Shown here piece after piece: positions 4,762 to 30,891 of a stretch of 64,000 nt of DNA (position 1 is its first letter; every line of letters begins with the position of its first letter). The notes below the pieces were generated by a model, which saw only the letters and a program-made list of their open reading frames with translations, did no database searches and was not told where the DNA came from. The translations under genes and the position numbers were made by a program. The DNA comes from a virus (taxonomy: Duplodnaviria; Caudoviricetes), in the IMG/VR virus record IMGVR_UViG_3300024581_002364, positions 4,870-68,869 of that record; one strand, given 5' to 3'.

Positions 4762-4982
4762 CTTGATAGTAATCTTTCCACAAGTTTATCAAGCTTTATG
4801 TTTATTTGATTAAATTCAATATTCATTTTTTCCATCTCACGAATATAATCTTGTTTTAAAACATACTCAAGAGGCATACGATCAATACGATCCTCTAACG
4901 CTCTCATTCTTCCAAATACTTTAGCTGTAAACCAACCACCACCTGTAACAGTTGCAACAACTAATGCAATTATTTGCTCCAT
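4758..4982 (-). CDS. Small membrane-anchored coiled-coil protein
   Basis: N-terminal hydrophobic segment, then a heptad-rich tail. Confidence 0.6.
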   Translation of the reverse strand: MEQIIALVVATVTGGGWFTAKVFGRMRALEDRIDRMPLEYVLKQDYIREMEKMNIEFNQINIKLDKLVERLLSR

Positions 4983-15902: not shown

Positions 15903-16169
15903 ATGCTGCCGGACCTTAATCCAATTGAAAAGCAAGAACGAGCCGTAGCATTACTTGCTATTGCTGATGAAGCTGAGAACAAAATTAAAAAAGGTGATGA
16001 TCCTTTAGAGGTTCAAACTTTTATTGGCGGCGCTCGCCGTGAATTGGCTCGCAAACTTCCCGATGTAAAAAGGATGGGCGAAGCAAGTTTGGCCGCAAAA
16101 CGTTATAAGGAAGAAGCACAAAAACAAGGTGGTGGATTTGGTGAATTCGTACAACCTAACCTTGCGTGA
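15903..16169 (+). CDS. Hypothetical protein
   Basis: 88 aa, followed by an intrinsic terminator. Confidence 0.6.
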   Translation: MLPDLNPIEKQERAVALLAIADEAENKIKKGDDPLEVQTFIGGARRELARKLPDVKRMGEASLAAKRYKEEAQKQGGGFGEFVQPNLA

Positions 16170-16192
16170 TTTGGGTTAAAAATTTGGGGTAA

Positions 16193-16216
16193 GTCCGGAT
16201 TTTCCGGACATTTTTT
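16193..16216 (+). terminator. Rho-independent terminator
   Basis: GTCCGGA-TTT-TCCGGAC then A and a T-run. Confidence 0.75.
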
Positions 16217-16607
16217 ATGTTATAAATTTTTTTAGACTTTGTAATATCGAATTTTTAAATTTGGGCTACCAGGGGTGGTGTAATACAAATTTTTTGCATC
16301 TCCGAAGTCGGCCCTAAGAACCTCAAATTGGGTTAAAAATTACCTGACACGTCTCACACACGTGTTCCGACTGGGAATGTGTATAGAAAAAAAATAAATG
16401 TCGGTTATTGCCGGTAGAAAGTAAGAATAGTTCTCATCATTAAGTTTTAAGGAGGAACTTCGTTTGAATTTACTAACAATTTTTGTTAAATTCAACAGAA
16501 AGTGTGTTAATCTTTATTATTTTTTAACAAATTAGCTGTCGTTTCCCGCGCAAATTACCATAAGATCCCTCCGCTCTCTTCTTTCAGATAATACTGTTAG
16601 AAGTAAT

Positions 16608-16634
16608 AGACCTAAGTAAGTCTTTAAACTGCTT
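16608..16634 (+). ncRNA. Leader H-type pseudoknot, family P copy 1
   Basis: AGAC-CUAAGUAA-GUCU-UUAAAC-UGCUU; loop AAGUA pairs with UGCUU. Confidence 0.65.
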
Positions 16635-17115
16635 TTGTTCTTTTTATTTTATCAAATCAAATGAACACAATTGCTTTCGTCACTGACAATTTCTACTTCG
16701 AGTTTGTTATCAACTCGGAGGAAGATATTGCGTACGTTACCAAGCGTGCGTTTCAAACTTCTGATGTTGACTTCAATGATCAGTGCACGTCGATGTCAAT
16801 CGAACGTGCCCGTAAGTATTACGCATCATTGATTGATTGATTGATCCGTCAAAGCGGGTCCGGAGGTGCAAACCCTCCGGCAGTTATTACCCCCAGCGGA
16901 GATGGGTACCGCACACTCGGAGCGACTGACGTGTTCTTCGTCATCCTCAACGGTCAACAACACAGCGCACACTTCTCCAAAGAGGAAGCCGACTTGGTTG
17001 CGTTTGATCTCTCGGTCGAACATAACTACAACTTCGGTCATCCTTTAGAAGAGTCCGCAGAGATATCTGTCTTCTCCTTTACGGAGATGATGGAGTCTCC
17101 GGTTGAGATGGTCCT

Positions 17116-17178
17116 TTGAGACCAGGCGTGATGCCGGGGGTCAAACCCCCTCTCAATTATTGCCACAATCCAGTGGCA
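17116..17178 (+). ncRNA. tRNA-elbow-like element plus UGCCAC/GUGGCA hairpin, copy 1
   Basis: UUGAGA/UCUCAA stem enclosing a GGC/GCC hairpin and GGGG-GUCAAAC-CCCC; then UGCCAC-AAUCCA-GUGGCA. Confidence 0.45.
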
Positions 17179-17585
17179 TTTATTTCATTTCATCATGTTT
17201 AAGAAACTTCTTGCTGATCCACGCTGTGTCTTTATTGGTGTAATGGGTTTAGCTTTAGGAACAATAGCTGTTGGAGTTACCACTCCTGCATTTATTGAAG
17301 GGGCAACCAGGAAACAGTGCCTTAACCGTGACTGGCCTGCTGAAAAGCATCTAGCTCACATGGCATTCTGTGAATACCATAAGTACCCCACTTCCTTAAA
17401 CCATTCCACCCTTTCCAACTGAACGATGACAGCACTCAACATCCGCAAGAACCTTGCCGGTCTTCTCTATCTCACTGCAGATACTATCGTCAAGGCCAAA
17501 GCACCCAAGGTGCCAACCAAAGGCCAGGTGAAGTATCAAGTTGATGATCTTCGTCGGAAGATTGCCAACAAGATCAATCCTGACA

Positions 17586-17648
17586 ACTGACAGCTGGTGC
17601 ATAGCCGGGTTCAATTCCCGGCGTCAGTCTTGCCACAATACCGTGGCA
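17586..17648 (+). ncRNA. tRNA-elbow-like element plus UGCCAC/GUGGCA hairpin, copy 2
   Basis: ACUGAC/GUCAGU stem, D-loop-like AGCUGGU, T-arm GCCGGG-UUCAAUU-CCCGGC; then UGCCAC-AAUACC-GUGGCA. Confidence 0.55.
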
Positions 17649-17906
17649 TTTATTGCATTACACCTCATGGCTACCAACAAAGAGAAGTCGATTGCCCTTG
17701 GTGCAGCATGTACTGCATTGGGTGCCATCATCTTTCCACCAACTGCTATTTTAGGTGCAATTTTAATTGCAAGGGAGGCACTATCAGACCACCCTTACGA
17801 ACAAGATGATAAGAAATCTAGTTCTTATCACAAACCCTTGGAGTACCAACCACCTGACATCAGCAACCCTAGGTTCTGAGTCTTCAGACAAGATACCAGA
17901 CACTTC

Positions 17907-18019
17907 TGTCTGGCTATGTCTGGCTATGTCTGGCTATGTCTGGCTATGTCTGGTTATGTCTGGCTATGTCTGGCTATGTCTGGCTATGTCTGGCTATGTC
18001 TAGTAACTTGTCTGGCTAT
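17907..18019. repeat. 10-bp tandem repeat (TGGCTATGTC)x9 plus degenerate flanks
   Basis: Nine units at 17911-18000, one variant TGGTTATGTC. Confidence 0.97.
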
Positions 18020-18049
18020 TACTCTTTACAAGTTCATTAGCCCAGGTAC

Positions 18050-18076
18050 CGTCCTGAGTATGACGTTAAACTGCTT
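18050..18076 (+). ncRNA. Leader H-type pseudoknot, family P copy 2
   Basis: CGUC-CUGAGUAU-GACG-UUAAAC-UGCUU; GAGUA pairs with UGCUU. Confidence 0.65.
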
Positions 18077-18531
18077 AATGTTTCCTTTAGATTCCCGACA
18101 TGCCAACCACTGTTGAGATTCAAACCGATGCCATTGCTAAAGCCCGTGACAAGAACTGGATGGTTCTAAGTGCAGGCACTGACTACACAGCAATTGTCAT
18201 CGCACACTGCCGTGACATGAACACCAACTGGTACAGAGAGATGGTGATTGTTGATGGTGTAGCTGAAACCATGACACATCAAAGTCCAGATACAGTCTGG
18301 AACGATGAAGAGATTGCCAAGAAGCTTGAGTGTTTCAAGCTGAATACCCATGGCAATGATTTCGTTACACCTGAGACTGACTGACCCCCCACCCCGTTTC
18401 CGTCAATGTCACTGCAGAGCTACAGGATCGGTAAGAACCAGTATGTGACCACTGACTTCTATAAAAGTCCAGGGTTGCGTAATCGGTTCTATCGTTTCAT
18501 TGCAAGGTTATTCCGTATTTAACCTTTCAAC

Positions 18532-18559
18532 AGACCTGAGTAAGTCTTTAAACTACTCA
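18532..18559 (+). ncRNA. Leader H-type pseudoknot, family P copy 3
   Basis: AGAC-CUGAGUAA-GUCU-UUUAAAC-UACUC; GAGUA pairs with UACUC. Confidence 0.65.
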
Positions 18560-18873
18560 CTGTTTTTTCATTTTATTAAATCACATGACTGTTCAAACAT
18601 TTGACGATGGTGGTTATGTTGTCACTGGTGACAGCATTCCCACGTATCGTCTCTTGACATTACGCACAGCTCTCAAACTGGAAACCAAGGGATTGCGTAT
18701 GTCATCTCATCGCCCTAGTGCATATTCAATCATTAAGAAAGAGTTTGGTCTAAAAGGTTCCAAGACTAAGGTCTTGGCTGCTTTTGAATCAATGCTTGTC
18801 AATGATTACGGCATACCTTTGACAGGCTTTACACCCTCTGAGCCTACGGTATAACTACCTTGTCCCCATCACA

Positions 18874-18905
18874 AGCTGGGCAGCAACAATGCGTAAGTCC
18901 CAGCT
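18874..18905 (+). ncRNA. Leader hairpin with GUAAG internal loop, family H copy 1
   Basis: AGCUGGG-CAGCA-ACAA-UGCGUAAGU-CCCAGCU. Confidence 0.65.
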
Positions 18906-19167
18906 TTCTTCACCTCATTTCATTTAGTACAACATCATGTCTACCATGTCTGAACTCCATCGCCTAATGCAAGAAATGAAGCAGGATGATCTTGACATCC
19001 TCGCTGATATTGCCTACGAACAAGAACAAGCCATGCGCGAAGCCATGGACGAACCACCAATCGAGGTATCAAATGACTCATCAACAAAGTAATCACACTG
19101 AAGTAATTACAGAGATCATTGCTTTGATCTCTGTTGTTATTACAGTTCTCATTACCAACATCATCCA

Positions 19168-19539
19168 ATGTCTTCAACCCTCAAGTACTACACCGAGCGT
19201 TATCCGGTTACAGGCGCAGCAAGATATTGGATTGACCGATACAACTGGTCCAAAACCTTTGATGGTTGTGACCCAGAAACAATCCAAATCCACAACATCT
19301 GGCAAAACTACGGCGGGCCAGAAGAAGGTGGTTGGTGGTACGAAGTCGGTCAAGCAATCTCCACGCATTTCATCTTCTCCAAGAAGCAATGTATCCGAAG
19401 ATGCATTGAACTCACCCAGCAGTACCAGCTTGATAACCAGCCTTCCATTACAGATTCACGAGGTCTCACCGCCGTTCATGCCACACTCGGAACAGGATTT
19501 GCCATGGACTATCCCACCGAGCGGCCTTACTATTGCTAG
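19168..19539 (+). CDS. Phage hypothetical protein with YGGPEEGGWWY motif
   Basis: Motif seen in the translation; I recognise it from other phage early regions. Confidence 0.65.
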   Translation: MSSTLKYYTERYPVTGAARYWIDRYNWSKTFDGCDPETIQIHNIWQNYGGPEEGGWWYEVGQAISTHFIFSKKQCIRRCIELTQQYQLDNQPSITDSRGLTAVHATLGTGFAMDYPTERPYYC

Positions 19540-19554
19540 GTCATGAACTACATA

Positions 19555-19586
19555 CCCTGGGCAGCTATGATGCGTAAGTCCCAGGG
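19555..19586 (+). ncRNA. Leader hairpin, family H copy 2
   Basis: CCCUGGG-CAGC-UAUGAU-GCGUAAGU-CCCAGGG. Confidence 0.65.
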
Positions 19587-20136
19587 TTTTCCATAGCAAG
19601 TCCTTCGTTATTCAACTACGTATCAAATCAAATCATGGACACAGTCAATGACATCTACGGTCCTTACTACCAAGAGAAGGGCCGAGAAATACCACGCAAG
19701 TCTTCACTCTCACCTGAAGCAGCAAAGCTGTGGCGTCAGATGGAACAAGCAGCTCATGCTTATGTCTATCAAGACGCACCATTGTGTGACCTTGATCAAG
19801 CAGTTGACGAGCTGATAGCCCACCCAGGCTGCAGCTGGCAACGCAACACAATTGAATACTGGATCCGCCAGCATTACTACAAATAACCACACTGATTTAT
19901 TAGTAAAACTTATTACTCAACCCATGTCTAATCTTCAAATTCCTGACAACATCCCTGATGCTGACAAGCTTAGGGCCATGGCACTCGTTGCAAAAATGCA
20001 GGATGCAGCTAACAAATGCGGTGCTCAATTCATCGGTGGATTCATTGCACCAGATGGCACCAAATACATTGCATCCAACATGGATGAAGATGATCCGAAC
20101 TACATCATCCCTGACAACCTTATGGATTGATCAACC

Positions 20137-20427
20137 ATGACTCGAAAGAAATCAAAGGTCAACTTTGACAAAACTATTGCCGGATTCAATATCACTGAAC
20201 ACGGCATCAAAAGCTACAGCAAAACTATCAAGCTTGGTCCTTTCCAGTTCACTGCCAACATCAATGGTTCACAGGCCAGGGGATCCTTAGGGATCCCTGG
20301 TACTGGCATATCATTTCGCAACTGCGTCTCTATGGACTTACCCTCTTTAGAGTCACCAGATCTGCCAGAATACAACCGCAAACCAGACATGTGGGATGAC
20401 GACGAAGGTTCTCAAGCTAAGCATTGA
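20137..20427 (+). CDS. DUF4236-like protein
   Basis: KTIKLGPFQFTANINGSQARGSLGIPGTGISFR. Confidence 0.6.
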   Translation: MTRKKSKVNFDKTIAGFNITEHGIKSYSKTIKLGPFQFTANINGSQARGSLGIPGTGISFRNCVSMDLPSLESPDLPEYNRKPDMWDDDEGSQAKH

Positions 20428-20590
20428 TAGTGTCACACCAGACGATGTAATTTATACAGGACCACGGGGTGGTGAATACATCATCCGCGATGGTATCAAG
20501 TATTACATCAACCGTAAGCCAACAAGCTATGGTCGTAATTACAAACCAAGGGCAGGTGCATTCCAACGATTCCTTGCTAATCAAAATTAA
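20396..20590 (+). CDS. PBCV basic-adaptor-like small protein
   Basis: IYTGPRGGEYIIRDGIKYYI motif. Confidence 0.6.
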   Translation: MTTKVLKLSIDSVTPDDVIYTGPRGGEYIIRDGIKYYINRKPTSYGRNYKPRAGAFQRFLANQN

Positions 20591-20661
20591 GTAACCCCTC
20601 CACACCTCCCAAAGGGCGACCAGGGGGAATACATTTATATATAGATGTACTTCTCTCTATC

Positions 20662-20688
20662 CGTCCTAGACATGACGTTAAACTGTCT
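20662..20688 (+). ncRNA. Leader H-type pseudoknot, family P copy 4
   Basis: CGUC-CUAGACAU-GACG-UUAAAC-UGUCU; AGACA pairs with UGUCU (compensatory changes). Confidence 0.65.
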
Positions 20689-21174
20689 TTGTTCACATCA
20701 CATCTAATCAAATGAAACTTGAATCCTGGCCTGACATCTACTCTAAGTACACCACAATTAGTGGCTTAGCTGATGAAGCCCAACAATCCATGGACAACTA
20801 CGAAGTTGGTTCCGAAGGATGGTACAAAGCATGGGGCCGAGCCGAAGGCTTGAGAACAGCCGCTATCGAAATCTTAAACAAATCTAATGACTGAAATCAT
20901 TTCTGTTGACTCAATTGAACTCGATCTTGTCGATGAACATGGAACAAGTTATTGGATCTGTTCTGCCACAATTGCTGACGCAGTTCAAACAATTGCTGCT
21001 CGGTATAATCCTCCTGGCAGTTCCCATCCTGCTGAATATGGTCCAGCGTCTTGCAGCTCATCATTTGAGCTAGAAGATGGTGAGTTACCACCTCCAGTAG
21101 ATGGAACACAGTACGAGCAGATTCAATATCTAACTGACCTTGATCTCGACTGGACTCCAGATCAAGACTAAACT

Positions 21175-21219
21175 CTAGGCATCAGTCGCTATTATCTCTG
21201 CAGGCTGTGTAAGTCCTAG
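21175..21219 (+). ncRNA. Leader hairpin, family H copy 3
   Basis: CUAGG-CAU-CAGUC...GGCUG-UGUAAGU-CCUAG (compensatory G-C to A-U change in the outer stem). Confidence 0.65.
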
Positions 21220-21241
21220 CTTTCTCTCACATCACATCACA

Positions 21242-23083
21242 ATGCATTTCCAACTTCCTGAACAACTGCAGATGGAGGTCATCAAGTATGACGCCACTCG
21301 CAAACAACTTGCTGCACAACAAAAGAAGGAAACTACTCGCAAGAAGAATCCTTATCCTGTTGGCAACGTCATTTCATTGGAGCTAATTCCGAGTGACGTT
21401 GTATCTGTTGTCGATATGCAAGCAGGTATTGATTTCATCAATCAACACTGTGCTGAGCAGCAATCAGTTCGATTTACCAGGCCCGATACTGAGTCGGGCA
21501 CAAACAAGATTAAAGCAATCTTGTATTACACCAAACACTTCTGGGTAGCTGCATGGTTACCACGCAGCACAGATGAGGGTTATTGGTATGGTATCTCTGT
21601 TGCATTCAAAGATAATGCAACTGCACGTAAACAATTTACTGGTAGTTTATTTCACTGTTCCAAAGTAGGTAAACGTGCTTTAATTAATGATATTACTGAT
21701 ATGCGTTCACAACGTATTGGACGTACTGATTGGTGTGTTACCACTAAATACATAACTCAAGAATATATTGATCAAGGTTATTCACGTCGTTACTATCACA
21801 ACGTTGATAATAACCATGATATTAAAGCATATCACGACAGGACTAGACAACATTATCGTCATGTTGAAGAGTTTGATCGTGAATTGTTAAGTCGTATCCC
21901 TTGTTGGACTGATACTCGTTATACATCTAATGCATGGGCACGCACCATGCCTAACGGTGATGATATTAAGTTTTGTTTATTGCAATCCAGATTATGGACT
22001 GTAGTTGATCATGATAAAACTTTTAATCATAATGTTGATACTTATATTGCTAAATTTAAATCTCTTGCTAAGAATAAATACATTCAAGAAGATTTCTGGG
22101 AATGTAAATGGTTCCGCAAGTTGGTATCCAAGATGGTAATTGATATGTCTACTGCATTTGATGCAAGAGACTCTATCAAAGCCAGCATTAAACCTATTGT
22201 CCAACCTTATGCAGTTGTTGATGCTTTCTTAGAGTCAGCAAGTGAAATCTATAAGCTTTATCCAGATCTAAATAAAGACTTGCTGATTACGCGTTTTGAC
22301 ATCTTAGTCGAAACACATTTTAGAGCATCTATTAGACATACTCCTGATAACAATCGTGCTCTTCTTTGGTTACAAACACATTTATCTGTTGAGTCATTCT
22401 TGAATATGCTTGGTAAATACCATGCTGAACAATTAGCTGAACATTCTGATTCTATTGATACTCATCGTCATTACTATCAGGATGATTGGACTGGTCGTTG
22501 GAGTTTCTTCTGGAGATTGTTTGATGATACATTTTCCATGCTGAATCAAGTTCTTGCTTGCAATGCGGGCATGACTGAATCAGGTGTGGAGTATCGCAAC
22601 AAGGAAGCATTGCCCAAGCTTGATCCAATGCCACGTCGTTGGCGTATGGATGAATGGCATGATCATCTCATGGCAGAAACTTGGAAGATTCGTAATCCAA
22701 ACGAAAAGCTTCCACAGAAGTTGTTCCCTGAACCAATCAAAGTTCTTCATAAGGGAATGCATGAAGGTTTCGATACTGAAACCAAATACACTTTCTTCCA
22801 GCCCATGGATACCCATCAGTTATCACAGTGGGGTCAAGCAGTACGTAATTGTGTTGGCTCTTCTAACTACTCAGAAGGTATTCGTAAGTACAGGCACATG
22901 ATTGTGCTTGTCATGATTGATGGCAAACCTCGTTACACTGTGCAACTTAAAGTTGACAATGGCATGATGGTTGTTAGTCAAATTGCTGACATCAGCAATG
23001 CACGACTTGATGATCTTGAACGTTCCAATGTTCAAGATGCATTTAAACAAGCCTTGCAGTTACGCGAAAAGCAGTTAAGCTAA
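21242..23083 (+). CDS. PcfJ-domain protein
   Basis: C-terminal WHDHL...QLSQWGQAVRNCVGSSNY...RYTVQL...VSQI pattern. Confidence 0.75.
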   Translation: MHFQLPEQLQMEVIKYDATRKQLAAQQKKETTRKKNPYPVGNVISLELIPSDVVSVVDMQAGIDFINQHCAEQQSVRFTRPDTESGTNKIKAILYYTKHFWVAAWLPRSTDEGYWYGISVAFKDNATARKQFTGSLFHCSKVGKRALINDITDMRSQRIGRTDWCVTTKYITQEYIDQGYSRRYYHNVDNNHDIKAYHDRTRQHYRHVEEFDRELLSRIPCWTDTRYTSNAWARTMPNGDDIKFCLLQSRLWTVVDHDKTFNHNVDTYIAKFKSLAKNKYIQEDFWECKWFRKLVSKMVIDMSTAFDARDSIKASIKPIVQPYAVVDAFLESASEIYKLYPDLNKDLLITRFDILVETHFRASIRHTPDNNRALLWLQTHLSVESFLNMLGKYHAEQLAEHSDSIDTHRHYYQDDWTGRWSFFWRLFDDTFSMLNQVLACNAGMTESGVEYRNKEALPKLDPMPRRWRMDEWHDHLMAETWKIRNPNEKLPQKLFPEPIKVLHKGMHEGFDTETKYTFFQPMDTHQLSQWGQAVRNCVGSSNYSEGIRKYRHMIVLVMIDGKPRYTVQLKVDNGMMVVSQIADISNARLDDLERSNVQDAFKQALQLREKQLS

Positions 23084-23096
23084 GGCGGGATTGGGC

Positions 23097-23125
23097 TTTA
23101 CCCCTCCCTGCTTGTGGCGTATAGT
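23097..23125 (+). promoter_or_regulatory. Sigma70-type promoter upstream of tRNA
   Basis: TTTACC-17 nt-TATAGT. Confidence 0.55.
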
Positions 23126-23133
23126 GGCGCATT

Positions 23134-23166
23134 AGATCAGATGGTGCAACATCTGATCTTTTTTTT
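23134..23166 (+). terminator. Terminator-like hairpin abutting the tRNA 5' end
   Basis: AGATCAGATG-GTGCAA-CATCTGATCT then T7. Confidence 0.7.
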
Positions 23167-23255
23167 GGGAGCGTGATGGAATTGGTAGACATTGCAGACT
23201 TAAAATCTGTTGATCAGTAATGATCGTGCGGGTTCAAGTCCCGCCGCTCCTACCA
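23167..23255 (+). tRNA. trnL: tRNA-Leu (anticodon UAA), CCA encoded
   Basis: Acceptor GGGAGCG/CGCTCCT, D-loop TGGTAG, anticodon arm GCAGA-CTTAAAA-TCTGT, long variable arm, T-arm GCGGG-TTCAAGT-CCCGC, 3' ACCA. Confidence 0.97.
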
Positions 23256-23276
23256 AACTTAACTACACCTAATCAA

Positions 23277-23630
23277 ATGTTTCAAGCACTTAAATCTCTC
23301 ATCCCGCAGCCTCACTGCAACATGGATGAAGACCAGCGTTACAACATTGGCTTAACCTGGATTGATCGTGACGGTCTTACCGATCGGCACAATGTCCAGA
23401 TCAAATACATCCGTAATAGTGAACGACTAGCTGTCACGATGGGTGAGCCTCAGCCAGACGGCAGCTGGAGATACATTGATGAAGGCGGAATGGTTCACAC
23501 CATGAATGCTGAACGAGTCAATGCTTTTTACAAAAAGACTCAAGAGAATGCTGTGATCATGTCAGCAATGATTGACAAGATCAATGAGCATGTCGGACCT
23601 ACGGTTGACACTAAGGGTTCGCCTGCTTAA
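23277..23630 (+). CDS. Hypothetical protein (start moved downstream of the tRNA)
   Basis: MFQALKSL... start; the track's longer version overlaps the tRNA. Confidence 0.65.
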   Translation: MFQALKSLIPQPHCNMDEDQRYNIGLTWIDRDGLTDRHNVQIKYIRNSERLAVTMGEPQPDGSWRYIDEGGMVHTMNAERVNAFYKKTQENAVIMSAMIDKINEHVGPTVDTKGSPA

Positions 23631-23633
23631 TAT
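23605..23633 (+). promoter_or_regulatory. Sigma70-type promoter
   Basis: TTGACA-17 nt-TAATAT. Confidence 0.55.
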
Positions 23634-23650
23634 CAGCGCGGACGAGACCT

Positions 23651-23680
23651 AGCCCTGGATTCAGAGCCCAGGGCTTTTTT
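23651..23680 (+). terminator. Rho-independent terminator-like hairpin
   Basis: AGCCCTGG-9 nt-CCAGGGCT then a T-run. Confidence 0.7.
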
Positions 23681-23694
23681 ATTTTTCAAACAAC

Positions 23695-23979
23695 ATGCCT
23701 GAATCATTTCGCAAAAAGAAGAACACTTTTGCTATTGGTGATCGTGTCATTCGTAAAGCAGGACCTTTTGGTGGACCGCCAAATGCAAAGCGAATCCTTC
23801 ATGGTGAAGTTGTAGACATTACTTACAAAGTAAATGCAAGAGGTGCCAAGCATCCTTACATTACAGTCAAGTTCGATCATAGCCAAAGGCTAGAAACCTT
23901 TATGGCTTCTCGCATCGAACATGAAGCCAACAAAGAAAAGCACCTTGCTGATGCCATCGAATCTGTCTATGTCCCCTGA
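23695..23979 (+). CDS. Small beta-barrel (KOW/SH3-like) hypothetical protein
   Basis: FAIGDRVIRK...GEVVDI...YITVKFD pattern. Confidence 0.5.
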   Translation: MPESFRKKKNTFAIGDRVIRKAGPFGGPPNAKRILHGEVVDITYKVNARGAKHPYITVKFDHSQRLETFMASRIEHEANKEKHLADAIESVYVP

Positions 23980-24628
23980 AGTTAAATTAACTTGGGCAAC
24001 ACAAGATGCCGAGTCACTCATTGTTGAGATGGCTCGTGTATCTGCTCCTAAAAATGCAAAGAACATGAGCACTGCACCACGTCTCATCAAGTATTTAATT
24101 AAACACAAACATTGGTCACCATTTGAAATGGCAAATATGTGTGTAGAGATACACACTACAAGAGCAATTAGCCCTCAAATATTGAGGCATAAATCTTTTT
24201 CATTCCAAGAATTTAGCCAACGATATGCTAATACCAATGAAATAGGACGTATTGAAATACCTCATCTTAGGGTTCAAGATACTAAGAACAGACAAAACTC
24301 CACTGATACTCTTGAAACTCTTTTGGGTAAGCCAGCAACTGCTGATTTATACCGTCGTGTTTCTATGCATTTTGAAGATGCAGAGCATTTGTACCAAGAA
24401 CTTCTTAGCTCCGGCGTGGCAAAAGAATCAGCCAGATTTATATTGCCTACCGCCGCACCTACAAAAATGTTTATGAACGGTACACTTCGTTCATGGTTGC
24501 ATTATCTTGACTTAAGAACCGATGTCTCAACACAACTTGAACACAGAGAGATTGCATTAACTATTAAAGATATTTTTAAAAAACAATTCCCTGTTATTTC
24601 AGAGGCTGCTTGGAATGAACTGTCGTAA
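23969..24628 (+). CDS. thyX: FAD-dependent thymidylate synthase
   Basis: HKHWSPFEM and signature RHKSFSFQEFSQR; likely start MSPEVKL. Confidence 0.95.
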   Translation: MSPEVKLTWATQDAESLIVEMARVSAPKNAKNMSTAPRLIKYLIKHKHWSPFEMANMCVEIHTTRAISPQILRHKSFSFQEFSQRYANTNEIGRIEIPHLRVQDTKNRQNSTDTLETLLGKPATADLYRRVSMHFEDAEHLYQELLSSGVAKESARFILPTAAPTKMFMNGTLRSWLHYLDLRTDVSTQLEHREIALTIKDIFKKQFPVISEAAWNELS

Positions 24629-24950
24629 ATGCAATTCTAAAAATACTAAAGTTACAGTTACTGAACATAAGAAAGAAGTAACTTGGCGGTACTGTAAATG
24701 TTTAGATTGTAATACTAAGTTTAAAACTATTGAGCGATATGAATATCAAAAACGTACACCATTAAATCTGGTGCCTATACCAAAGGGTTGTGCTAATTAC
24801 AATTCACGTTTTACACCGGAAGATATTTATGACATCCGTAAACGATATGAGAAAGGTGATAGTGCTGCACAAATAGCTCTTAAATATAGTTGCGGACGGT
24901 CTACAATCCAAAGGATTGCGACCTACAAAACTTACAAAGATGTTATTTGA
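24615..24950 (+). CDS. Zn-ribbon (NrdR/Ogr-like) plus HTH protein
   Basis: CRKC...RYCKCLDCNTKFKTIE, then FTPEDIYDIR...SAAQIALKYSCGRSTIQRI. Confidence 0.65.
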   Translation: MNCRKCNSKNTKVTVTEHKKEVTWRYCKCLDCNTKFKTIERYEYQKRTPLNLVPIPKGCANYNSRFTPEDIYDIRKRYEKGDSAAQIALKYSCGRSTIQRIATYKTYKDVI

Positions 24951-25118
24951 AGATGCACTAGATCTTATCTACCGAGGACAAACAAATGTTGCAGTCATGG
25001 CTAACAAAACAGGCGTCTCATTGGAAGAAATGAAACGCCTGTTTAATTTATATGTAAGTCAACGTCCTATTGATCCAGATGTTTGGAGAGCAGACGTTGA
25101 ACTTGGTTGGCCTTGGGT

Positions 25119-25277
25119 TTAAACAATGCTATCTGGATTATTTTTCATGCGTAAACGGTCAAGTTTTGCTTCAAATTCCCGGCGTTGTTCTTGCAAACGT
25201 TGGTTCAAAAGATATGCAGCCATGGGATCAGGACGCTCGTACTTGACTCCACGATACGTCAACACTGTTTGTGCCAT
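25119..25277 (-). CDS. DUF4278 small protein, GifB/IF17-like (52 aa, not in ORF track)
   Basis: MAQTVLTYRGVKYERPDPMAAYLLNQRLQEQRREFEAKLDRLRMKNNPDSIV; LTYRGVxY is the DUF4278 hallmark; riboswitch directly upstream. Confidence 0.8.
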   Translation of the reverse strand: MAQTVLTYRGVKYERPDPMAAYLLNQRLQEQRREFEAKLDRLRMKNNPDSIV

Positions 25278-25294
25278 GATGTTCTCCGCTTTAA

Positions 25295-25351
25295 CTCTGG
25301 TTCCCGTTCCGTAACCAGATGAGATGCGCCAGCACTATAGCTGGTGAACGT
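25295..25351 (-). ncRNA. Glutamine-II riboswitch (Downstream-peptide motif)
   Basis: CGUUC/GAACG P1, CCAGC/GCUGG hairpin, CGCA junction, GGAACGGG, pseudoknot UCUGGUU/AACCAGA; TATAAT at 25364-25359; DUF4278 gene downstream. Confidence 0.85.
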
Positions 25352-25380
25352 ACTTATTATTATAGTTCAGCTAAACAACC

Positions 25381-25779
25381 ATGCCCGGTACTCGCAGACA
25401 ACCACGCACAAACCTCTATTCCACACAGCAAGTGTTGCAGTCCACAATGATGGCTCGTTACACTCTTATGCGTTATGTTAAAGACGGTAGGTTTCCTAAA
25501 CCAGCAATTAAAGCTGGTGACATTGACTCTCGTGGTGCTGATTGGTATTCCAAAAAAGATGTTGATAAATGGTTAAAAGATAACTCTGATTTAATTTTAT
25601 GGAAACGAAAACGCATTGAAGAAGATATTACTTTAACAATTTCAGCAGATGATTTGAAAAAAATACGAAAAGCATCTGAAGTATTAATGTGTGACATTGA
25701 ACCATTTATTATTGAAGCTGCAATCTGGAAAGCAAAACTTATTCTTAAACAAACAGAGATGAATACTAATTACTATTAA
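25381..25779 (+). CDS. AlpA/excisionase-like HTH protein with a possible C-terminal RHH
   Basis: LYSTQQV...RYTLMRYVKDGRFPKP...WYSKKDVDKWL. Confidence 0.65.
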   Translation: MPGTRRQPRTNLYSTQQVLQSTMMARYTLMRYVKDGRFPKPAIKAGDIDSRGADWYSKKDVDKWLKDNSDLILWKRKRIEEDITLTISADDLKKIRKASEVLMCDIEPFIIEAAIWKAKLILKQTEMNTNYY

Positions 25780-25782
25780 CAA

Positions 25783-25822
25783 CTGGGCAGCAGGTTTATC
25801 GGGATGCCTGCGTAAGTCCCAG
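25783..25822 (+). ncRNA. Leader hairpin, family H copy 4
   Basis: CUGGG-CAGCAGG...CCUGCGUAAGU-CCCAG. Confidence 0.65.
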
Positions 25823-25844
25823 ACACACTAAATTAAATCACACT

Positions 25845-26615
25845 ATGCACACTTTAAAATTTTCCACAGGCAATGCCAAGCTTGGAAAACGTCTCATCTT
25901 TTCCTTACCAGCAGGTTACACCTGTCCTAACGCTGGTCATTGCAAAACATTTGCTGATCGTGTTACAGGTAAAATCAAAGACCTGCCGCAGTCGGCTCAC
26001 GCAACTGGACTTGAGTATCGCTGCTTTGCTGCCATGGCAGAGGCGCGTAGTAAAAACTGCCGTGATGCGCGGTGGTTTAATTGGGACACACTCAAAGAAA
26101 TCCTTTATTCTGAAGATACAAAAGATCCAGTAAGTGCAATTGCCGATACAATTTCTTACGGAATCTGGCAATACAATAAGCACAAATTAGTTTATGATCT
26201 CTGTCGTATCCATGAATCTGGAGACTTTTGGTCTGAGCTTTATTTCCAGGCTTGGCTAAAAGTTGCACGACAACATCCCAACATCAAATTCTATGCTTAC
26301 ACCAAGCAACTCTCCTACTGGCTCAATGCTAAAGACGACATTCCTGCTAACTTGTTTCTCACTGCTTCAGTTGGCGGTAATCTCGATCATTTACTCGCCA
26401 GGTACAGCCACATTTTCAGGCGTATAGCCCATGTGGTTTATACAGAAAATCAAGCTATTGATATGGGTTTAGACATTGATCATGACGATAGCCATTGTTT
26501 TGGTAATAAACCGTTTGCACTTCTAGTTCATAACGTCCAAAGGGCAGGAACTGCTGCATCAAAAGCATTGGCTGAGCGTAAACGTCAGGGATCTTGGACA
26601 GGATATTCTAAATAA
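25845..26615 (+). CDS. Gp88-like protein
   Basis: GNAKL...FSLPAGYTCP...CFA...RIHESGDF...FYAYTK. Confidence 0.7.
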   Translation: MHTLKFSTGNAKLGKRLIFSLPAGYTCPNAGHCKTFADRVTGKIKDLPQSAHATGLEYRCFAAMAEARSKNCRDARWFNWDTLKEILYSEDTKDPVSAIADTISYGIWQYNKHKLVYDLCRIHESGDFWSELYFQAWLKVARQHPNIKFYAYTKQLSYWLNAKDDIPANLFLTASVGGNLDHLLARYSHIFRRIAHVVYTENQAIDMGLDIDHDDSHCFGNKPFALLVHNVQRAGTAASKALAERKRQGSWTGYSK

Positions 26616-26619
26616 TTAG

Positions 26620-26668
26620 TTGCAAGCTTACGAGGAATGAGTACTATTTATTCGTTCCTCATTTTTAT
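26620..26668 (+). promoter_or_regulatory. Promoter of the polymerase operon, overlapped by an inverted repeat
   Basis: TTGCAA-16 nt-TACTAT; GAGGAATGA/TCGTTCCTC arms flank the -10 box. Confidence 0.45.
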
Positions 26669-26842
26669 TTGTGTCGTACTTAATTACTACTTATATAGAT
26701 GGTGTGCCGCATGCCATCATGCCTAATGTTGATGCAATGAGATTTGATCTGATTCGTGTCACAAAAGATTCTGAAATTTCCAAAGCATTCTGCAGTCCGA
26801 ACAAAACTGGTGCTATGAATGTTCTTAAGTGGATTAATGAGA

Positions 26843-28705
26843 ATGATGAAACTCTCTCAAGTAAAGGACTGTCAGTTTCCCCTGAAGCCAAGTTCTTCCG
26901 CTGATAAGTGGTACGTCTTTGATTTAGAAACTAACGGACTTTATGATGATGTTACACAAATCTTTTGCATCGTCTTACACGATGTCTACAGAAACCAGAC
27001 TCTTAGTTATGGGCCTGGGTCTATTGATGACGCTCTTAGTCTTATCGCTGATGCTGATTGTCTCATCGGCCATAACATAATTTTTTACGACTTGCCTGTT
27101 CTTCGTAAACTTTATCCCAATCTCCTGGTCAAAGATCAACATGTCATCGACACCCTCGTCGCAACCAGGCTCATATGGCCGAAAGAAAAACTATTTGACC
27201 TTGATGAAAATCACTACACGTCAGTGCCACCTGGTCTTAGAGGATCAGCCGGTCTTAAAGCTTGGGGCTATCGACTCAGTGATTACAAAATTGATTTCAA
27301 AGACTTTTCTGTCTACTCACAGGAGATGCTTGACTACTGCATCCAAGACGTTAATGTCACCACCAAACTCTATAAAGAAATCTGTCAATACTCCATTGCA
27401 GCATCAGCGCATAAGTTGGAGCATGATTGTGCCCTTGCGATTGAGAAACAGATTAGATCAGGTTTTCCATTTGATGTTGATCAATGTCTTGATCTTGTGG
27501 ATGGGCTTGAATCTAAGAAACAGAATCTAGAGACACAGCTCAAAAAATTATTTCCACCAATCGAGACAGAAGAGTGGTTTACTCCTAAAGTAAACAACAC
27601 CAAACGTGGTTACGTCAAAGGTGTGCCCTTTCGTAAAGTTCACATTGAAGAATTTAACCCAGGCTCTCGCGCACAAATCACTGCACGTCTCAAAGATAAA
27701 TACGGTTGGACACCTGAACGGACTACCGAAAAAGGTAATCCAATCTTGGATGACGACGTACTGGAACAACTGCCGTATCCAGAAGCTAAACCGCTTGCTG
27801 AATACATGCTGCTTAAAAAACGACTTGGTCAAATTAAAGACGGTAAAAATGCATGGCTCAAACTGGTCTCAAAAGATGGCTACATGCACGGTGATCTTGT
27901 TACCAATGGCTGTATTACCGGTCGAGCAAGTCACCGTAATCCCAACATGGCGCAAATTCCTGCTGCCTATTCACCCTACGGCAAAGAATGCCGTTCTTTA
28001 TTCCATGCTCCTGACGATTGGGTTCTTATTGGGGCAGATGCCAAAGCTTTGGAATTACGATGCTTGGCTGGATATTTGGCTATATGGGATGATGGTGAAT
28101 ACGGAAATGTTGTTATTGATGATGCTCAAGACATTCATTCATACAATCAAGAAATGTTTGGAGTTGCCACAAGAGATATTAGTAAGCGTCTTCTCTATGC
28201 TGTTCTTTATGGGTGTGGTTTCCTTAAAGCAGGTAACATTGTGGATCCACAAGAAAAAGATCCTGATCGACTCAAACAACTGGGGAGATCTGCCATCTCT
28301 TCCTTCATGTCCAAAGTCCCAGCCGTACAATCTCTCAAAGAACTTCTTGAAAAAAATCTAACCAACCGTGGTTATTTACTTGGTCTTGATCGTAGACCTT
28401 TGTATTGCAGATCTGAATTCAAAGCATTGAATGTGCTTTTGCAATCAGCAGGTGCAATCATCATGAAACAAGTTGTTGTCAATGTACATAATGCATTGAA
28501 AGAAGCTGGTTTCATCTATGGTCAGGACTGGCATCAACATGCATTTATACATGATGAAATACAAATATCTTGTCGTCCAGGTTTGGAAACGGATCTCACT
28601 CCTCTTATTCTTTCTGCTTTTGTGGATGCCGGTAATTTCTATAGTTTTCGTTGCAAAATAGAAGGTGACGCTAAGACCGGCTATACATGGTATTCAACAC
28701 ACTGA
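26843..28705 (+). CDS. polA: Family A DNA polymerase (T7-like, 3'-5' exo plus polymerase; Tyr at the E. coli 762-equivalent position)
   Basis: Exo I FDLETNG, Exo II GHNIIFYD, motif A GADAKALELR, motif B SKRLLYAVLYG, motif C IHDEIQ. Confidence 0.96.
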   Translation: MMKLSQVKDCQFPLKPSSSADKWYVFDLETNGLYDDVTQIFCIVLHDVYRNQTLSYGPGSIDDALSLIADADCLIGHNIIFYDLPVLRKLYPNLLVKDQHVIDTLVATRLIWPKEKLFDLDENHYTSVPPGLRGSAGLKAWGYRLSDYKIDFKDFSVYSQEMLDYCIQDVNVTTKLYKEICQYSIAASAHKLEHDCALAIEKQIRSGFPFDVDQCLDLVDGLESKKQNLETQLKKLFPPIETEEWFTPKVNNTKRGYVKGVPFRKVHIEEFNPGSRAQITARLKDKYGWTPERTTEKGNPILDDDVLEQLPYPEAKPLAEYMLLKKRLGQIKDGKNAWLKLVSKDGYMHGDLVTNGCITGRASHRNPNMAQIPAAYSPYGKECRSLFHAPDDWVLIGADAKALELRCLAGYLAIWDDGEYGNVVIDDAQDIHSYNQEMFGVATRDISKRLLYAVLYGCGFLKAGNIVDPQEKDPDRLKQLGRSAISSFMSKVPAVQSLKELLEKNLTNRGYLLGLDRRPLYCRSEFKALNVLLQSAGAIIMKQVVVNVHNALKEAGFIYGQDWHQHAFIHDEIQISCRPGLETDLTPLILSAFVDAGNFYSFRCKIEGDAKTGYTWYSTH

Positions 28706-28707
28706 TA

Positions 28708-28735
28708 CTGGGCATCCTTAAGGTGTAAGCCCCAG
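28708..28735 (+). ncRNA. Leader hairpin, family H copy 5
   Basis: CUGGG-CAUCC-UUAA-GGUGUAAGC-CCCAG. Confidence 0.6.
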
Positions 28736-28760
28736 ATAAAACCGTTTAAAGGATCGGATC

Positions 28761-29585
28761 ATGAACAAAGCTTTTCTGTCGCTGCAAGCAGCAGAAGCTC
28801 CACGTCAAGTCTATGTGGATGCAAATCGCACCAATGTGATTGTTAATGTCACAGCTCCACCTGCTGGTAAAGGCAAAGTTGCAACGCCTCTGACTCTGTT
28901 CATCTACACCAAAGCTGAACAAGATCGTGTCATGCAAACTATCAAAGAAGGTTCATATCTCTTTGTTGCAGGTGCTAAGTTGCGTCACGATTTAGAAAAG
29001 CGTGAACACTCACTTCATGGTGGATTAATTTATCCAGTTAACCCTGGTGAGTTTGGCATTATTAATGACATTATTCTTGGTGGTCGTTGCATTAAAGATG
29101 TAGATCGCAGTGATGAACGCGCTTATCGCGTTACTGAAGCTGGTTATGTTATTACAAACCAAACACTATCGGTAAACACTGGTAAGCAACAAGCTGACCT
29201 TTATAACTTCTATGCCATTAATGAAACCTCAGCCCGTTACAACCTGGCTGAATTGGTATCAACAATGACTAAAAAAGGAACAGGTCTAACCATCTCTGGT
29301 CGTTTAGTTACTGATGGCTGGACTGATAAAGCCTCTGGTGAACAGCGGTTTTCAACCAAGATTCAGCTGAACAACATGACCTTGGCTCCCAAAGCACAAG
29401 CTGGAGAGATCAAGCCATCAACTGAAATTGCACCTGGTGGTACTGCTGCTTCTCTATGGGGTAACGCAGATAGTCCTGCATCTAAACCACAACCTGTAGC
29501 GGCTGCTGCTTCTCCTGCACCAGATGTATGGGCTGATGGTTTACCTGATCTGCCTTCATCTAATGATGACAACGATCCTTTTTAA
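28761..29585 (+). CDS. ssb: Single-stranded DNA-binding protein with two OB-like domains
   Basis: KKGTGLTISGRLVTDGWTDKASGEQRFSTKI; Pro/Ala linker; acidic tail DDNDPF. Confidence 0.75.
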   Translation: MNKAFLSLQAAEAPRQVYVDANRTNVIVNVTAPPAGKGKVATPLTLFIYTKAEQDRVMQTIKEGSYLFVAGAKLRHDLEKREHSLHGGLIYPVNPGEFGIINDIILGGRCIKDVDRSDERAYRVTEAGYVITNQTLSVNTGKQQADLYNFYAINETSARYNLAELVSTMTKKGTGLTISGRLVTDGWTDKASGEQRFSTKIQLNNMTLAPKAQAGEIKPSTEIAPGGTAASLWGNADSPASKPQPVAAAASPAPDVWADGLPDLPSSNDDNDPF

Positions 29586-29605
29586 GCTAAACTAGTCGCA
29601 CTTAT

Positions 29606-29635
29606 CTGGGCATCTGCATGCAGTGTAAGGCCCAG
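29606..29635 (+). ncRNA. Leader hairpin, family H copy 6
   Basis: CUGGG-CAUCUGC-AU-GCAGUGUAAGG-CCCAG. Confidence 0.65.
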
Positions 29636-29661
29636 AACTTAACCTCGAAACAACCCTGATT

Positions 29662-30672
29662 ATGACCCCGACTTCATCTGCTTTGGCTAAACGCAAACTT
29701 GATTCGTTTGCGATGTTCAATGACAAGAAATTTGTCAGTGGATATCAGCCGCTTGTTACTATCCAGCCTCTTAATAAATCTAAGAAGCGTGGTTGGTTTG
29801 TTCGTAATTCTGATCTTGACAATTGTGGGTGGACCGCAACTGAAAAAGATTTTGACAAAGGTGCAATCATCTTTGATTACGAGCATGCCTTTGGTATGGC
29901 TCCAAACATGACCAAAGAAACAGGTCTTAATTTCCAGCGACCACGCGTTCAGGTTCTGTTGCGTTCACCTCTAATGGTGGAAGAACAGTTTGGAATGCGT
30001 CAATGCATTGGTACCTTTGAAGATCCTGAAGTTAAGGAATTGTTTGAAGCTGATAAAACAGCTGCTGACTTAGCTGCTAGCAAAAATGAAATGTACAAAC
30101 GTAAGTATTCTGTCCGCACTAAATATTTGGTCTATATCTTGACCAATGCTAATAAGCGGGCTCATAAAATCCCAATGGTTCTTACCCTTAAGGGTTTGAA
30201 TGGTACAGATGTTTCTGAAAAGATTCGTTTGTATGAAAAGGAAATGTCCAAGTGTTTATCTAAAGCACTGGACTCTGAAGTTCCTTTGCAATTCAACGAA
30301 AAGTTCTATGCAACCACTGTCTTTTGCCCTGAGCTAAGCAGTGATATGCGTGGATCTAATAACGTTGAGATCTGTGCTATCGAATCATTCGACATCCCAG
30401 ATTACACAAGTCAAGAAACAGCTGTTGCTGCCCTTGATTCCATGTCCATTCCTGATGAAGATCGTGAATCAACCTGGAAATTCCAAGAGATGTACAACGA
30501 CTACATCAACCAACATGCCCGCCAAGATGCTAGTCGGCTCAATGGTGCGTATGGGAACGCGGAAGGTGTCAGTATTCTTCCGGAGTCAAGAACGACTGAT
30601 GCTACCGTTGAAGTCCTCCCCGCAGCTACCAAAGCTTCCAGGGATGACCTCGGAGCGGATTCAACCTTCTGA
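29662..30672 (+). CDS. DUF5895-like protein
   Basis: PRVQVLLRSPL...KYLVYILTNANKRAHKIPMVLTLKG...TVFCP, adjacent to ssb. Confidence 0.5.
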   Translation: MTPTSSALAKRKLDSFAMFNDKKFVSGYQPLVTIQPLNKSKKRGWFVRNSDLDNCGWTATEKDFDKGAIIFDYEHAFGMAPNMTKETGLNFQRPRVQVLLRSPLMVEEQFGMRQCIGTFEDPEVKELFEADKTAADLAASKNEMYKRKYSVRTKYLVYILTNANKRAHKIPMVLTLKGLNGTDVSEKIRLYEKEMSKCLSKALDSEVPLQFNEKFYATTVFCPELSSDMRGSNNVEICAIESFDIPDYTSQETAVAALDSMSIPDEDRESTWKFQEMYNDYINQHARQDASRLNGAYGNAEGVSILPESRTTDATVEVLPAATKASRDDLGADSTF

Positions 30673-30864
30673 TAAAAAGGCTTGATCCATTTGGTCTAGT
30701 GCATCTTTCACTAGACCTTTAATCACACACTGGCGGGTCGCAGCTATGTTGACAAGCAGGGTTGCGATCTGCTTTAATTCATCTACTGAACTACATTCCT
30801 CGATGTAACGAGTCATCTTGACCTTCCAGAACTCTTCTTCTGGTGATGGTTCAAAGTTCAGCAT
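30661..30864 (-). CDS. Divergent NblA-like helical hairpin protein
   Basis: EPSPEEEF...SVDELKQIATLL...TRQCVIKGLVK aligns loosely with the NblA pattern ELSLEQQF...DQAKDFLVKL...RE....ELLK. Confidence 0.45.
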   Translation of the reverse strand: MLNFEPSPEEEFWKVKMTRYIEECSSVDELKQIATLLVNIAATRQCVIKGLVKDALDQMDQAFLSEG

Positions 30865-30891
30865 TCTATTTAATTTTATTCATCATTCTAC

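Follow-up and report, generated by a model that had tools for sequence, protein, structure and literature searches.

Interchangeable RNA folds, one of them a coremin-type pseudoknot, precede early genes of an S-EIV1-like cyanophage

Introduction

Why should a tailed phage place short RNA folds of different shape at nearly the same distance ahead of one early gene after another? The question is raised by a 64,000-nt stretch of viral DNA (positions 4,870 to 68,869 of IMG/VR record IMGVR_UViG_3300024581_002364), referred to here as the window. In a block of + strand genes, its intergenic spacers carry a compact pseudoknot (P), a hairpin with a conserved internal loop (H) or a tRNA-like fold followed by a hairpin (T), each ending shortly before the next start codon. 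The viral record is a contig of 68.9 kb and is 87% complete. Its DNA polymerase (26819-28705) shares 64.5% identity with the counterpart in Synechococcus phage S-EIV1, the S-EIV1 region is syntenic with the window, and on these sequence comparisons the window is that of an S-EIV1-like marine cyanophage. Most of the sequencing runs in which some of the stretch occurs, in small shares, bear the label of a marine or seawater metagenome.

Results

Number and placement of the folds in the window

The whole 64 kb was scanned with regular expressions and, with filters off, with two covariance models, one for P and one for H. Exactly six H and four P were found, all on the + strand (Table 1). The scans placed H at 18876-18903, 19557-19584, 21175-21219, 25783-25822, 28708-28735 and 29606-29635, and the starts of P at 16609, 18051, 18533 and 20663. 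Their covariance-model E values range from 1.9e-13 to 1.8e-4 for H and from 2.5e-9 to 4.8e-7 for P, and the two models returned nothing else in the 64 kb at E<0.01. Counted from the core motif, the gaps to the next ATG are 25, 22, 25 and 22 nt for P and 33, 50, 22, 22, 25 and 26 nt for H. The original prediction, made from the letters of the window, had spoken of at least 12 fold sites ending 16-31 nt before a start codon, with one outlier at 48 nt. These distances agree with the P, H and T gaps measured here, and its four P and six H were recovered exactly; the tRNA-like modules, however, number three rather than two, and a genuine tRNA-Leu(UAA) in the same leader position had been passed over. 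The prediction had also described the gap as unstructured, A/U/C-rich and free of a Shine-Dalgarno (SD) sequence. The leaders are indeed poor in G (G makes up 0-4% of the final 25 nt in most of them, 12% in two, and 20% in the leader of SSB) and mostly SD-less, but the one before SSB matches a loose SD pattern.

Structure of P and its relation to coremin

P is a 27-28-nt H-type pseudoknot consisting of a 4-bp stem 1 (S1), a 1-nt loop 1 (L1), a 6-bp stem 2 (S2) and an A-rich loop. Across 38 distinct copies, 96% of the cells are paired and six of the ten pairs show changes on both sides, compared with 19-52% pairing in a control in which the 3' partners were slid. S1 (columns 8-11 with 20-23) is 100% paired, with G9, C11, G20 and C22 invariant and pair 10-21 covarying from U-A to A-U. 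S2, whose 3' strand had been left unconstrained in the search pattern, is 93% paired, with four of its six pairs changed on both sides. Many pairs are G.U on the sense strand and correspond to A.C mismatches on the opposite strand. The spacer U24 U25 A26 A27 A28 C29 U30 is invariant in 38/38 copies, and the 8-nt loop (C-UGAGC-A-U) keeps its first C and its penultimate A, three copies ending in C. Downstream of S2 follows the G-poor leader, in which we saw no conserved motif and, by eye, no hairpin.

The conserved parts of P recall the published plant-virus coremin motif of exonuclease-resistant RNA (xrRNA), class xrRNA-C, which is GUCCGAAGACGUUAAACUAC (PMC10520033) and comes, like its Watson-Crick variant, from beny-, cucumo- and other RNA viruses. 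Exonucleases working in the 5'-3' direction stall at coremin, as do ribosomes. Stalling of Xrn1 depends on the hp1 stem, the C-G closing pair and the spacer, in which positions A16-A20 are essential (PMC6546385; PMC10520033). In a Watson-Crick variant, xrRNA-WCC, loop 1 pairs with the spacer; this variant drives frameshifting in E. coli and resists bacterial ribosomes (PMC10321173). P has the GUC/GAC hp1 with its C-G closing pair, the spacer GUUAAACU, a pyrimidine as the first loop base and a loop ending in A-D. It keeps A16-U19 of the coremin spacer, A20 being aligned with a variable S2 position. With xrRNA-WCC it has in common the antiparallel Watson-Crick pairing of loop 1 to the strand after UUAAA. 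By its conserved stem and spacer, P is thus a coremin-type (xrRNA-C) knot, and the earlier statement that the elements correspond to no named motif was wrong for P. Unlike the published coremins, P forms six Watson-Crick pairs in S2 instead of three, and it lies between genes of a bacterial DNA phage and not in a 3' untranslated region, so that the nuclease concerned would be RNase J or RNase E rather than Xrn1. We found no paper that links coremin to phages.

A comparison with Rfam had been proposed together with the original prediction. In Rfam 15, no P or H of the window gave a match at E up to 10, and at gathering scores there was none in 17 other P-bearing loci. Other identities were considered and rejected. 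A riboswitch was ruled out, S2 being stably paired with no overlapping expression platform. The likeness of P to the 5' half of the pistol ribozyme (a hairpin, UUAAA and loop pairing) is superficial, and no Rfam pistol match was obtained. Neither P nor H was listed as an intrinsic terminator by a terminator scan; enrichment in U after H is confined to positions +3 and +4.

Structure of H

H was aligned from 138 unique copies. Its outer stem, CUGGG/CCCAG, is nearly invariant, with one pair switching from G-C to A-U. The internal loop reads CA on the 5' strand in 137 of the 138 copies and R-UAAG-N on the 3' strand. The inner stem covaries, its inserts measure 5-60 nt, and GNRA or UUCG tetraloops are frequent at the apex.

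H and T were not found in catalogues or papers. Compared by eye, the H loop fitted neither the K-turn, sarcin-ricin/loop E, the UAA/GAN motif and the 11-nt tetraloop receptor nor the 16S rRNA S8 site and the T-loop. Class 3 plant-virus xrRNAs combine an apical loop that forms a pseudoknot with downstream sequence and a T-loop-like L2B (PMC12397905); H was ruled out as a member, the GNRA/UUCG loops of many copies being unable to pair downstream.

H (for example 28708-28735) has TGGGCA ... GTAA|G in common with the 15-bp Syn5 cyanophage promoter, ATTGGGCACCCGTAA, whose start is the G that follows (PMC3950665). The likeness is probably due to chance, because the spacing from TGGGCA to GTAAG in H varies by 5-60 nt and no T7-like polymerase was found. 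For T7-like RNA polymerase (PF00940) the 68.9-kb record gave no match at E<=1, in a search whose positive controls were matchless too, and no polymerase emerged when the large unknown proteins were compared by sequence with PHROGs, Pfam and PDB.

P and H replace one another in relatives

Fifteen related loci were retrieved from IMG/VR with the DNA polymerase as query. The covariance models, which the original prediction had also proposed, found 46 P and 41 H in them. Without exception these 87 matches are on the gene strand, as are the ten of the window. Median distances to the start codon are 22 nt for P (10th-90th percentile ~20-28) and 27.5 nt for H (22-33). The preceding stop codon is usually 3-8 nt upstream of the element and sometimes hundreds of nt away. 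In the window, the genes that lack any element overlap or abut the preceding stop codon. The leaders are strongly depleted in G and have no conserved motif, and no -10 box stands at a fixed distance upstream of the elements.

When the downstream proteins were clustered, single families proved to be served by both folds: SSB by five H and six P, DUF5895 by four of each, GP88 by five H and three P, and a 584-aa PcfJ-like protein by two H and five P. Two small-protein families are likewise mixed. Since orthologues are preceded by H in one phage and by P in another, the two modules are interchangeable. Apparent gaps before orthologues are mostly degenerate copies of P or H.

The covarying stems, the sense-strand G.U pairs, the GNRA/UUCG tetraloops and the strand specificity point to folded sense-strand RNA rather than duplex DNA sites. 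The original prediction had held the folds to be real RNA structures and had added that homologous leaders conserving sequence but not pairing would speak for DNA operators. In the relatives, both stems of P and the inner stem of H covary and pairing is kept, which bears the prediction out; its picture of differing folds in constant placement likewise holds in the fifteen relatives and, for P, in 157 unrelated copies.

Blocks of nucleotide homology between window positions 16000-31000 and three of the related loci often start or stop where a P, H or T element lies. Cassette exchange at these sites would account for this, but so would the position of the elements at gene boundaries.

Wider distribution of P and H

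P occurs in many unrelated viral contigs, phages that use SD sequences included, and in at least 119 metagenome contigs, where by eye it does not cluster at contig ends. It was also found in 66 stretches of prokaryote genomes, mostly of Bacillota, Omnitrophota and Planctomycetota, S2 being intact in 69/74 matches. These phyla are non-enteric, and such lineages usually possess RNase J. Among the 157 unrelated copies, the gap from stop codon to P peaks at 6 nt and that from P to the start codon at 20-29 nt; 61 of the 157 have no long open reading frame (ORF) ending within 60 nt upstream. In SD-using phages (six loci, among others), a variant of P with a 9-nt loop precedes terminase-large-subunit-like and scaffold-like genes, labels given by eye from the N-termini and not profile-tested. 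This variant sometimes stands in tandem with a second similar knot.

In 12 prokaryote loci, from Omnitrophota, Planctomycetota and some other metagenome-assembled genomes (MAGs), the P copies share a CTGCWGTA-like upstream flank, which hints at a larger repeated unit in those MAGs.

For H, at least 56 additional viral contexts were found, and within the S-EIV1-like group H and P occur together. The canonical 28-nt pattern of H had 0 matches in 185,579 prokaryote genomes, so H gives no clue to the host.

T modules, tRNA-Leu and neighbouring features

T consists of an acceptor-like stem and a T-arm, the latter covarying in 13 copies from six sources (the window and five loci), followed by a 3' hairpin UGCCAC..GUGGCA that is invariant in these 13 copies and ends 15-18 nt before the ATG. 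The unvarying hairpin stem suggests sequence-specific recognition or recent spread. In the window, the folds of T1 and T2 have z scores of about -3.8; the mini-fold of T1 comprises a 6-bp acceptor-like stem, a small hairpin and a T-arm-like hairpin. The variant T0 is 81-87% identical to two look-alike places in one of the related loci. T2 has a weak mascRNA-like Rfam match (20.3 bits, E 3.6), which is at chance level. T was rejected as a full tRNA: it has no cloverleaf with an anticodon arm, and ARAGORN and the Rfam tRNA model find only tRNA-Leu. Elsewhere T forms arrays, with four to five successive small genes each carrying a module (L125:617-1759, L129:9496-10350 and L192:5764-6900). An H variant stands 3-7 nt upstream of tRNA-Leu in nearly all relatives, and the window has a terminator-like hairpin instead.

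Table 1 Positions of the RNA folds and related features in the window and their distance to the next start codon.
Feature	Position	Strand	Distance to next ATG	Remarks
P1, coremin-type H-type pseudoknot	16608..16635	+	25 nt (ATG 16661)	40.2 bits, E 2.7e-7
T0, variant tRNA-like module	16843..16908	+		T-arm-like hairpin CCGGAGG/CCUCCGG, then hairpin UACCC..GGGUA; downstream start codon uncertain
T1, tRNA-like mini-fold + hairpin UGCCACAAUCCAGUGGCA	17116..17178	+	16 nt (ATG 17195)	
T2, tRNA-like mini-fold + hairpin UGCCACAAUACCGUGGCA	17586..17648	+	18 nt (ATG 17667)	T loop UUCAAUU
P2, pseudoknot	18050..18077	+	22 nt (ATG 18100)	49 bits, E 2.5e-9
P3, pseudoknot	18532..18559	+	25 nt (ATG 18585)	Regular expression and covariance model
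H1, hairpin	18873..18906	+	~30 nt (ATG 18937)	Outer stem AAGCUGGG/CCCAGCUU, internal loop CA / GUAAGU, inner stem-loop; 47.1 bits
Plain long hairpin	19097..19146	+	21 nt (ATG 19168)	Structured leader of no recognised class; z -5.5
H2, hairpin	19554..19587	+	48 nt (ATG 19635)	Outlier gap; 47.6 bits
P4, pseudoknot	20662..20689	+	22 nt (ATG 20712)	Regular expression and covariance model
H3, hairpin	21175..21219	+	22 nt (ATG 21242)	Covarying outer stem CUAGG/CCUAG; before 613-aa PcfJ-like protein; orthologues with P
Terminator-like hairpin + U8	23134..23166	+		Directly 5' of tRNA-Leu; slot of the H variant in nearly all relatives
tRNA-Leu(UAA)	23167..23255	+	21-22 nt (ATG 23277)	CCA encoded; ARAGORN and Rfam tRNA
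Terminator-like hairpin	~23651-23683			Fills another spacer
H4, hairpin	25783..25822	+	22 nt (ATG 25845)	Before GP88 family
H5, hairpin	28708..28735	+	25 nt (ATG 28761)	Minimal 28-nt form; before SSB; orthologues with P
H6, hairpin	29605..29636	+	26 nt (ATG 29662)	Before DUF5895; orthologues with P

The + strand block runs from 16.6 to ~34 kb and holds small unknown genes, thyX and the genes for GP88, DNA polymerase, SSB and DUF5895. P1 is its first element, and the 439 nt upstream contain no + strand ORF. The conserved early 613-aa protein (21242-23083) has a weak PcfJ-like C-terminal match only and no PDB relative by sequence search. Antisense within the block lies a glutamine-II riboswitch (RF01704, 25295-25353, - strand; 44.4 bits against a gathering score of 33), after which comes a 52-aa ORF (25119-25277, - strand); it was seen in the Rfam scan by E value and had been overlooked by the gathering-score scan of the whole window. 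In the spacer ahead of P2, reading of the sequence revealed a tandem array of about nine copies of GTCTGGCTAT (17905-17995).

Discussion

What do these modules do? The reading that we favour, if tentatively, is that they may act as nuclease roadblocks or 5' caps that protect the mRNA of each cistron. An endonucleolytic cut upstream of a module would be made by RNase E, or by RNase P at T and the tRNA. Trimming by RNase J in the 5'-to-3' direction and 5'-end-dependent attack by RNase E would then halt at the folded module. The product would be a stable message with its 5' end capped 15-30 nt ahead of the start codon; where RNase P cuts at T, the T hairpin would become the new 5' end. The spacing can be accommodated in the same scheme. 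About 6 nt past the stop codon, a knot would stand at the mRNA entrance of a terminating ribosome, and about 20 nt before the start it would be clear of the initiating 30S subunit; going by known ribosome footprints, these would be the tightest spacings that avoid unwinding of the knot.

We favour nuclease roadblocks because of the coremin match, these clearances, the position of P1 at the head of the block and the H variant before a tRNA. P1 has no ORF upstream and therefore fits a 5' cap, not a device of the upstream gene. Ahead of tRNA-Leu a translational role of H is impossible, which argues against a purely translational role. Protection against 5'-dependent decay, one of the functions that had been suggested for the folds, gains indirect support from the coremin hp1 and spacer kept in P. 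The occurrence of genomic P mostly in lineages where RNase J is usual is in keeping with it. That the modules would block nucleases in bacteria, which nucleases these would be, and that H and T would share the job of P, we infer. Published xrRNAs do block bacterial RNase J1 (PMC8374639), and cyanobacteria have both RNase E and RNase J, the latter a 5'-P-dependent 5'-3' exonuclease (PMC7283877).

Several observations weigh against this reading. The loop of P has 8 nt instead of 4-6 and U instead of G as its second base, so it does not fit YGAD/YGNNAD, and P is without hp2, a hairpin of at least 4 bp after the spacer, which both published coremin and xrRNA-WCC require for Xrn1 stalling (PMC10321173). 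Between H and the xrRNA classes no similarity is detectable, and in thermodynamic terms H is of modest stability (-5 to -22 kcal/mol). Among phages that use SD sequences, P frequently stands directly after the U-run of a terminator. In Synechocystis, partial depletion of RNase J changed few mRNAs (PMC7283877). Finally, roadblocks of this kind would leave the gene after tRNA-Leu with an unprotected 5' end.

The alternatives were ranked in the order ribosome insulation, endonuclease processing, standby platforms, protein operators and DNA signals. The first holds that the folds stop post-termination sliding, re-initiation or read-through, so that each cistron is translated independently from its G-poor leader. 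In support, scanning ribosomes are stopped by coremin, which also promotes -1 frameshifting, an E. coli screen being one instance (PMC10520033, PMC10321173), the 6-nt peak between stop codon and P is the classic geometry of a frameshift spacer, and it is the genes overlapping or abutting an upstream stop that go without an element. Yet no ribosomes would arrive from upstream at P1, at 61 of the 157 unrelated P copies, at the H variants before a tRNA or at the post-terminator copies of SD-using phages, and we regard insulation as unlikely.

Cutting of the polycistronic RNA into units, in the manner of RNase III in the T7 early region, could itself be the function, with any protection as a by-product: T and the tRNA would be sites for RNase P, and the single-stranded UUAAAC and UAAGU sites for RNase E or RNase III. 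The tRNA has to be released by RNase P together with a 3' nuclease, and its release inevitably breaks the transcript 21 nt ahead of the following ATG; the acceptor-like stem of T stacks on a covarying T-arm; T and tRNA-Leu are likely cut markers for RNase P and RNase Z. The conserved loop of H lies on the 3' strand, as does the internal loop of T7 R1.1, which is cleaved there. With ~9-13 bp, however, H is short for RNase III, and the conserved parts of P match a motif that resists nucleases, not one that is cut. As an account of all the elements, processing seems rather doubtful.

The constant distance to the start codon and the G-poor, mostly SD-less leaders would suit translation enhancers or standby platforms, where the folds dock the 30S subunit or protein S1 in place of the missing SD sequence. 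We consider this improbable: P also precedes genes with a strong SD in other phages, H variants precede a tRNA, and the late genes of the same phage are SD-less yet free of elements.

More improbable still is that the folds are operators at which early genes would be shut off by an RNA-binding repressor of the phage, comparable to T4 gp32 or RegA, one candidate being the phage SSB, which would nucleate at the fold and spread over the unstructured leader. The architecture of P does resemble the gene 32 operator pseudoknot with its unstructured leader, and the SSB gene has P or H in all relatives but one; but P is found in unrelated phages and several bacterial phyla that share no such protein, and a single reader would have to recognise two or three unrelated folds.

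The weakest proposal, DNA-level signals, which would be either promoters read by a phage RNA polymerase that was not recognised or sites at which gene cassettes are swapped by recombination, can draw on the TGGGCA..GTAA|G common to H and the Syn5 promoter ATTGGGCACCCGTAA (PMC3950665) and on the homology blocks that end at elements, but is very hard to maintain against covarying stems, sense-strand G.U pairs, tetraloops and inner hairpins of 5-60 nt, which favour folded RNA, the want of a conserved -10 box upstream, and a 87%-complete record in which no T7-like RNA polymerase was found by a search whose positive controls were also matchless.

If the elements are nuclease roadblocks, the hairpin CUGGG-CA-[stem-loop]-GUAAGU-CCCAG would represent a new class of nuclease- or ribosome-blocking RNA, coremin-like in action but not in form, and T would couple cutting by RNase P to a ready-made 5' cap. 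To our knowledge, only RNA viruses of eukaryotes have so far yielded exonuclease-resistant RNAs; for bacteria and DNA viruses, a system of the xrRNA type would here be described for the first time. The broader proposition, that tailed phages have a toolkit of interchangeable, exonuclease-proof RNA modules by which the cistrons of their long transcripts are punctuated and stabilised, is possible, although we are more inclined to doubt it than to assert it. A coremin-type knot recurs dozens of times in one lineage of DNA phages, and in its slots stand two other conserved folds for which no Rfam family or paper was found; the positional equivalence of P, H and T therefore offers a testable handle on the roles of H and T. 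The elements point to a layer of mRNA stability in phage early gene expression that is invisible to annotation pipelines. S-EIV1 is in culture and carries the same elements, which makes the prediction testable at the bench, and modules of 28 nt that protect bacterial mRNA would be useful tools.

Comparison with known systems

Among known systems, the operator of T4/T2 gene 32 is a compact H-type pseudoknot with stems and loops of similar size, placed at the 5' edge of an unstructured leader before the gene of a phage single-stranded-DNA-binding protein. With a single copy per genome, it serves gene 32 specifically, binds protein and has no sequence in common with P, whereas P and H precede many unrelated genes.

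The early RNase III sites of T7 (R0.3-R1.3) are structured and lie between the early cistrons of one long transcript; they too have a conserved asymmetric internal loop, and their hairpins are left at message ends. These sites are double helices of ~20 bp that are cut by RNase III. H, in contrast, has ~9-13 bp, P is a knot, and no cleavage is known for either.

In mitochondrial tRNA punctuation and in MALAT1 mascRNA, an embedded tRNA or a fold lacking the anticodon marks the cuts of RNase P and RNase Z, as T and tRNA-Leu probably do. Those systems are eukaryotic or organellar, and T has in addition an invariant hairpin, the prospective 5' end of the downstream message.

Chloroplast barriers of the PPR10 type are proteins, and the bacterial stabilisers of ompA and aprE are plain 5' stem-loops without conserved loops; yet these intercistronic or 5' blocks stop RNase J or RNase E and set stable ends (PMC3799425), much as the phage modules are proposed to do.

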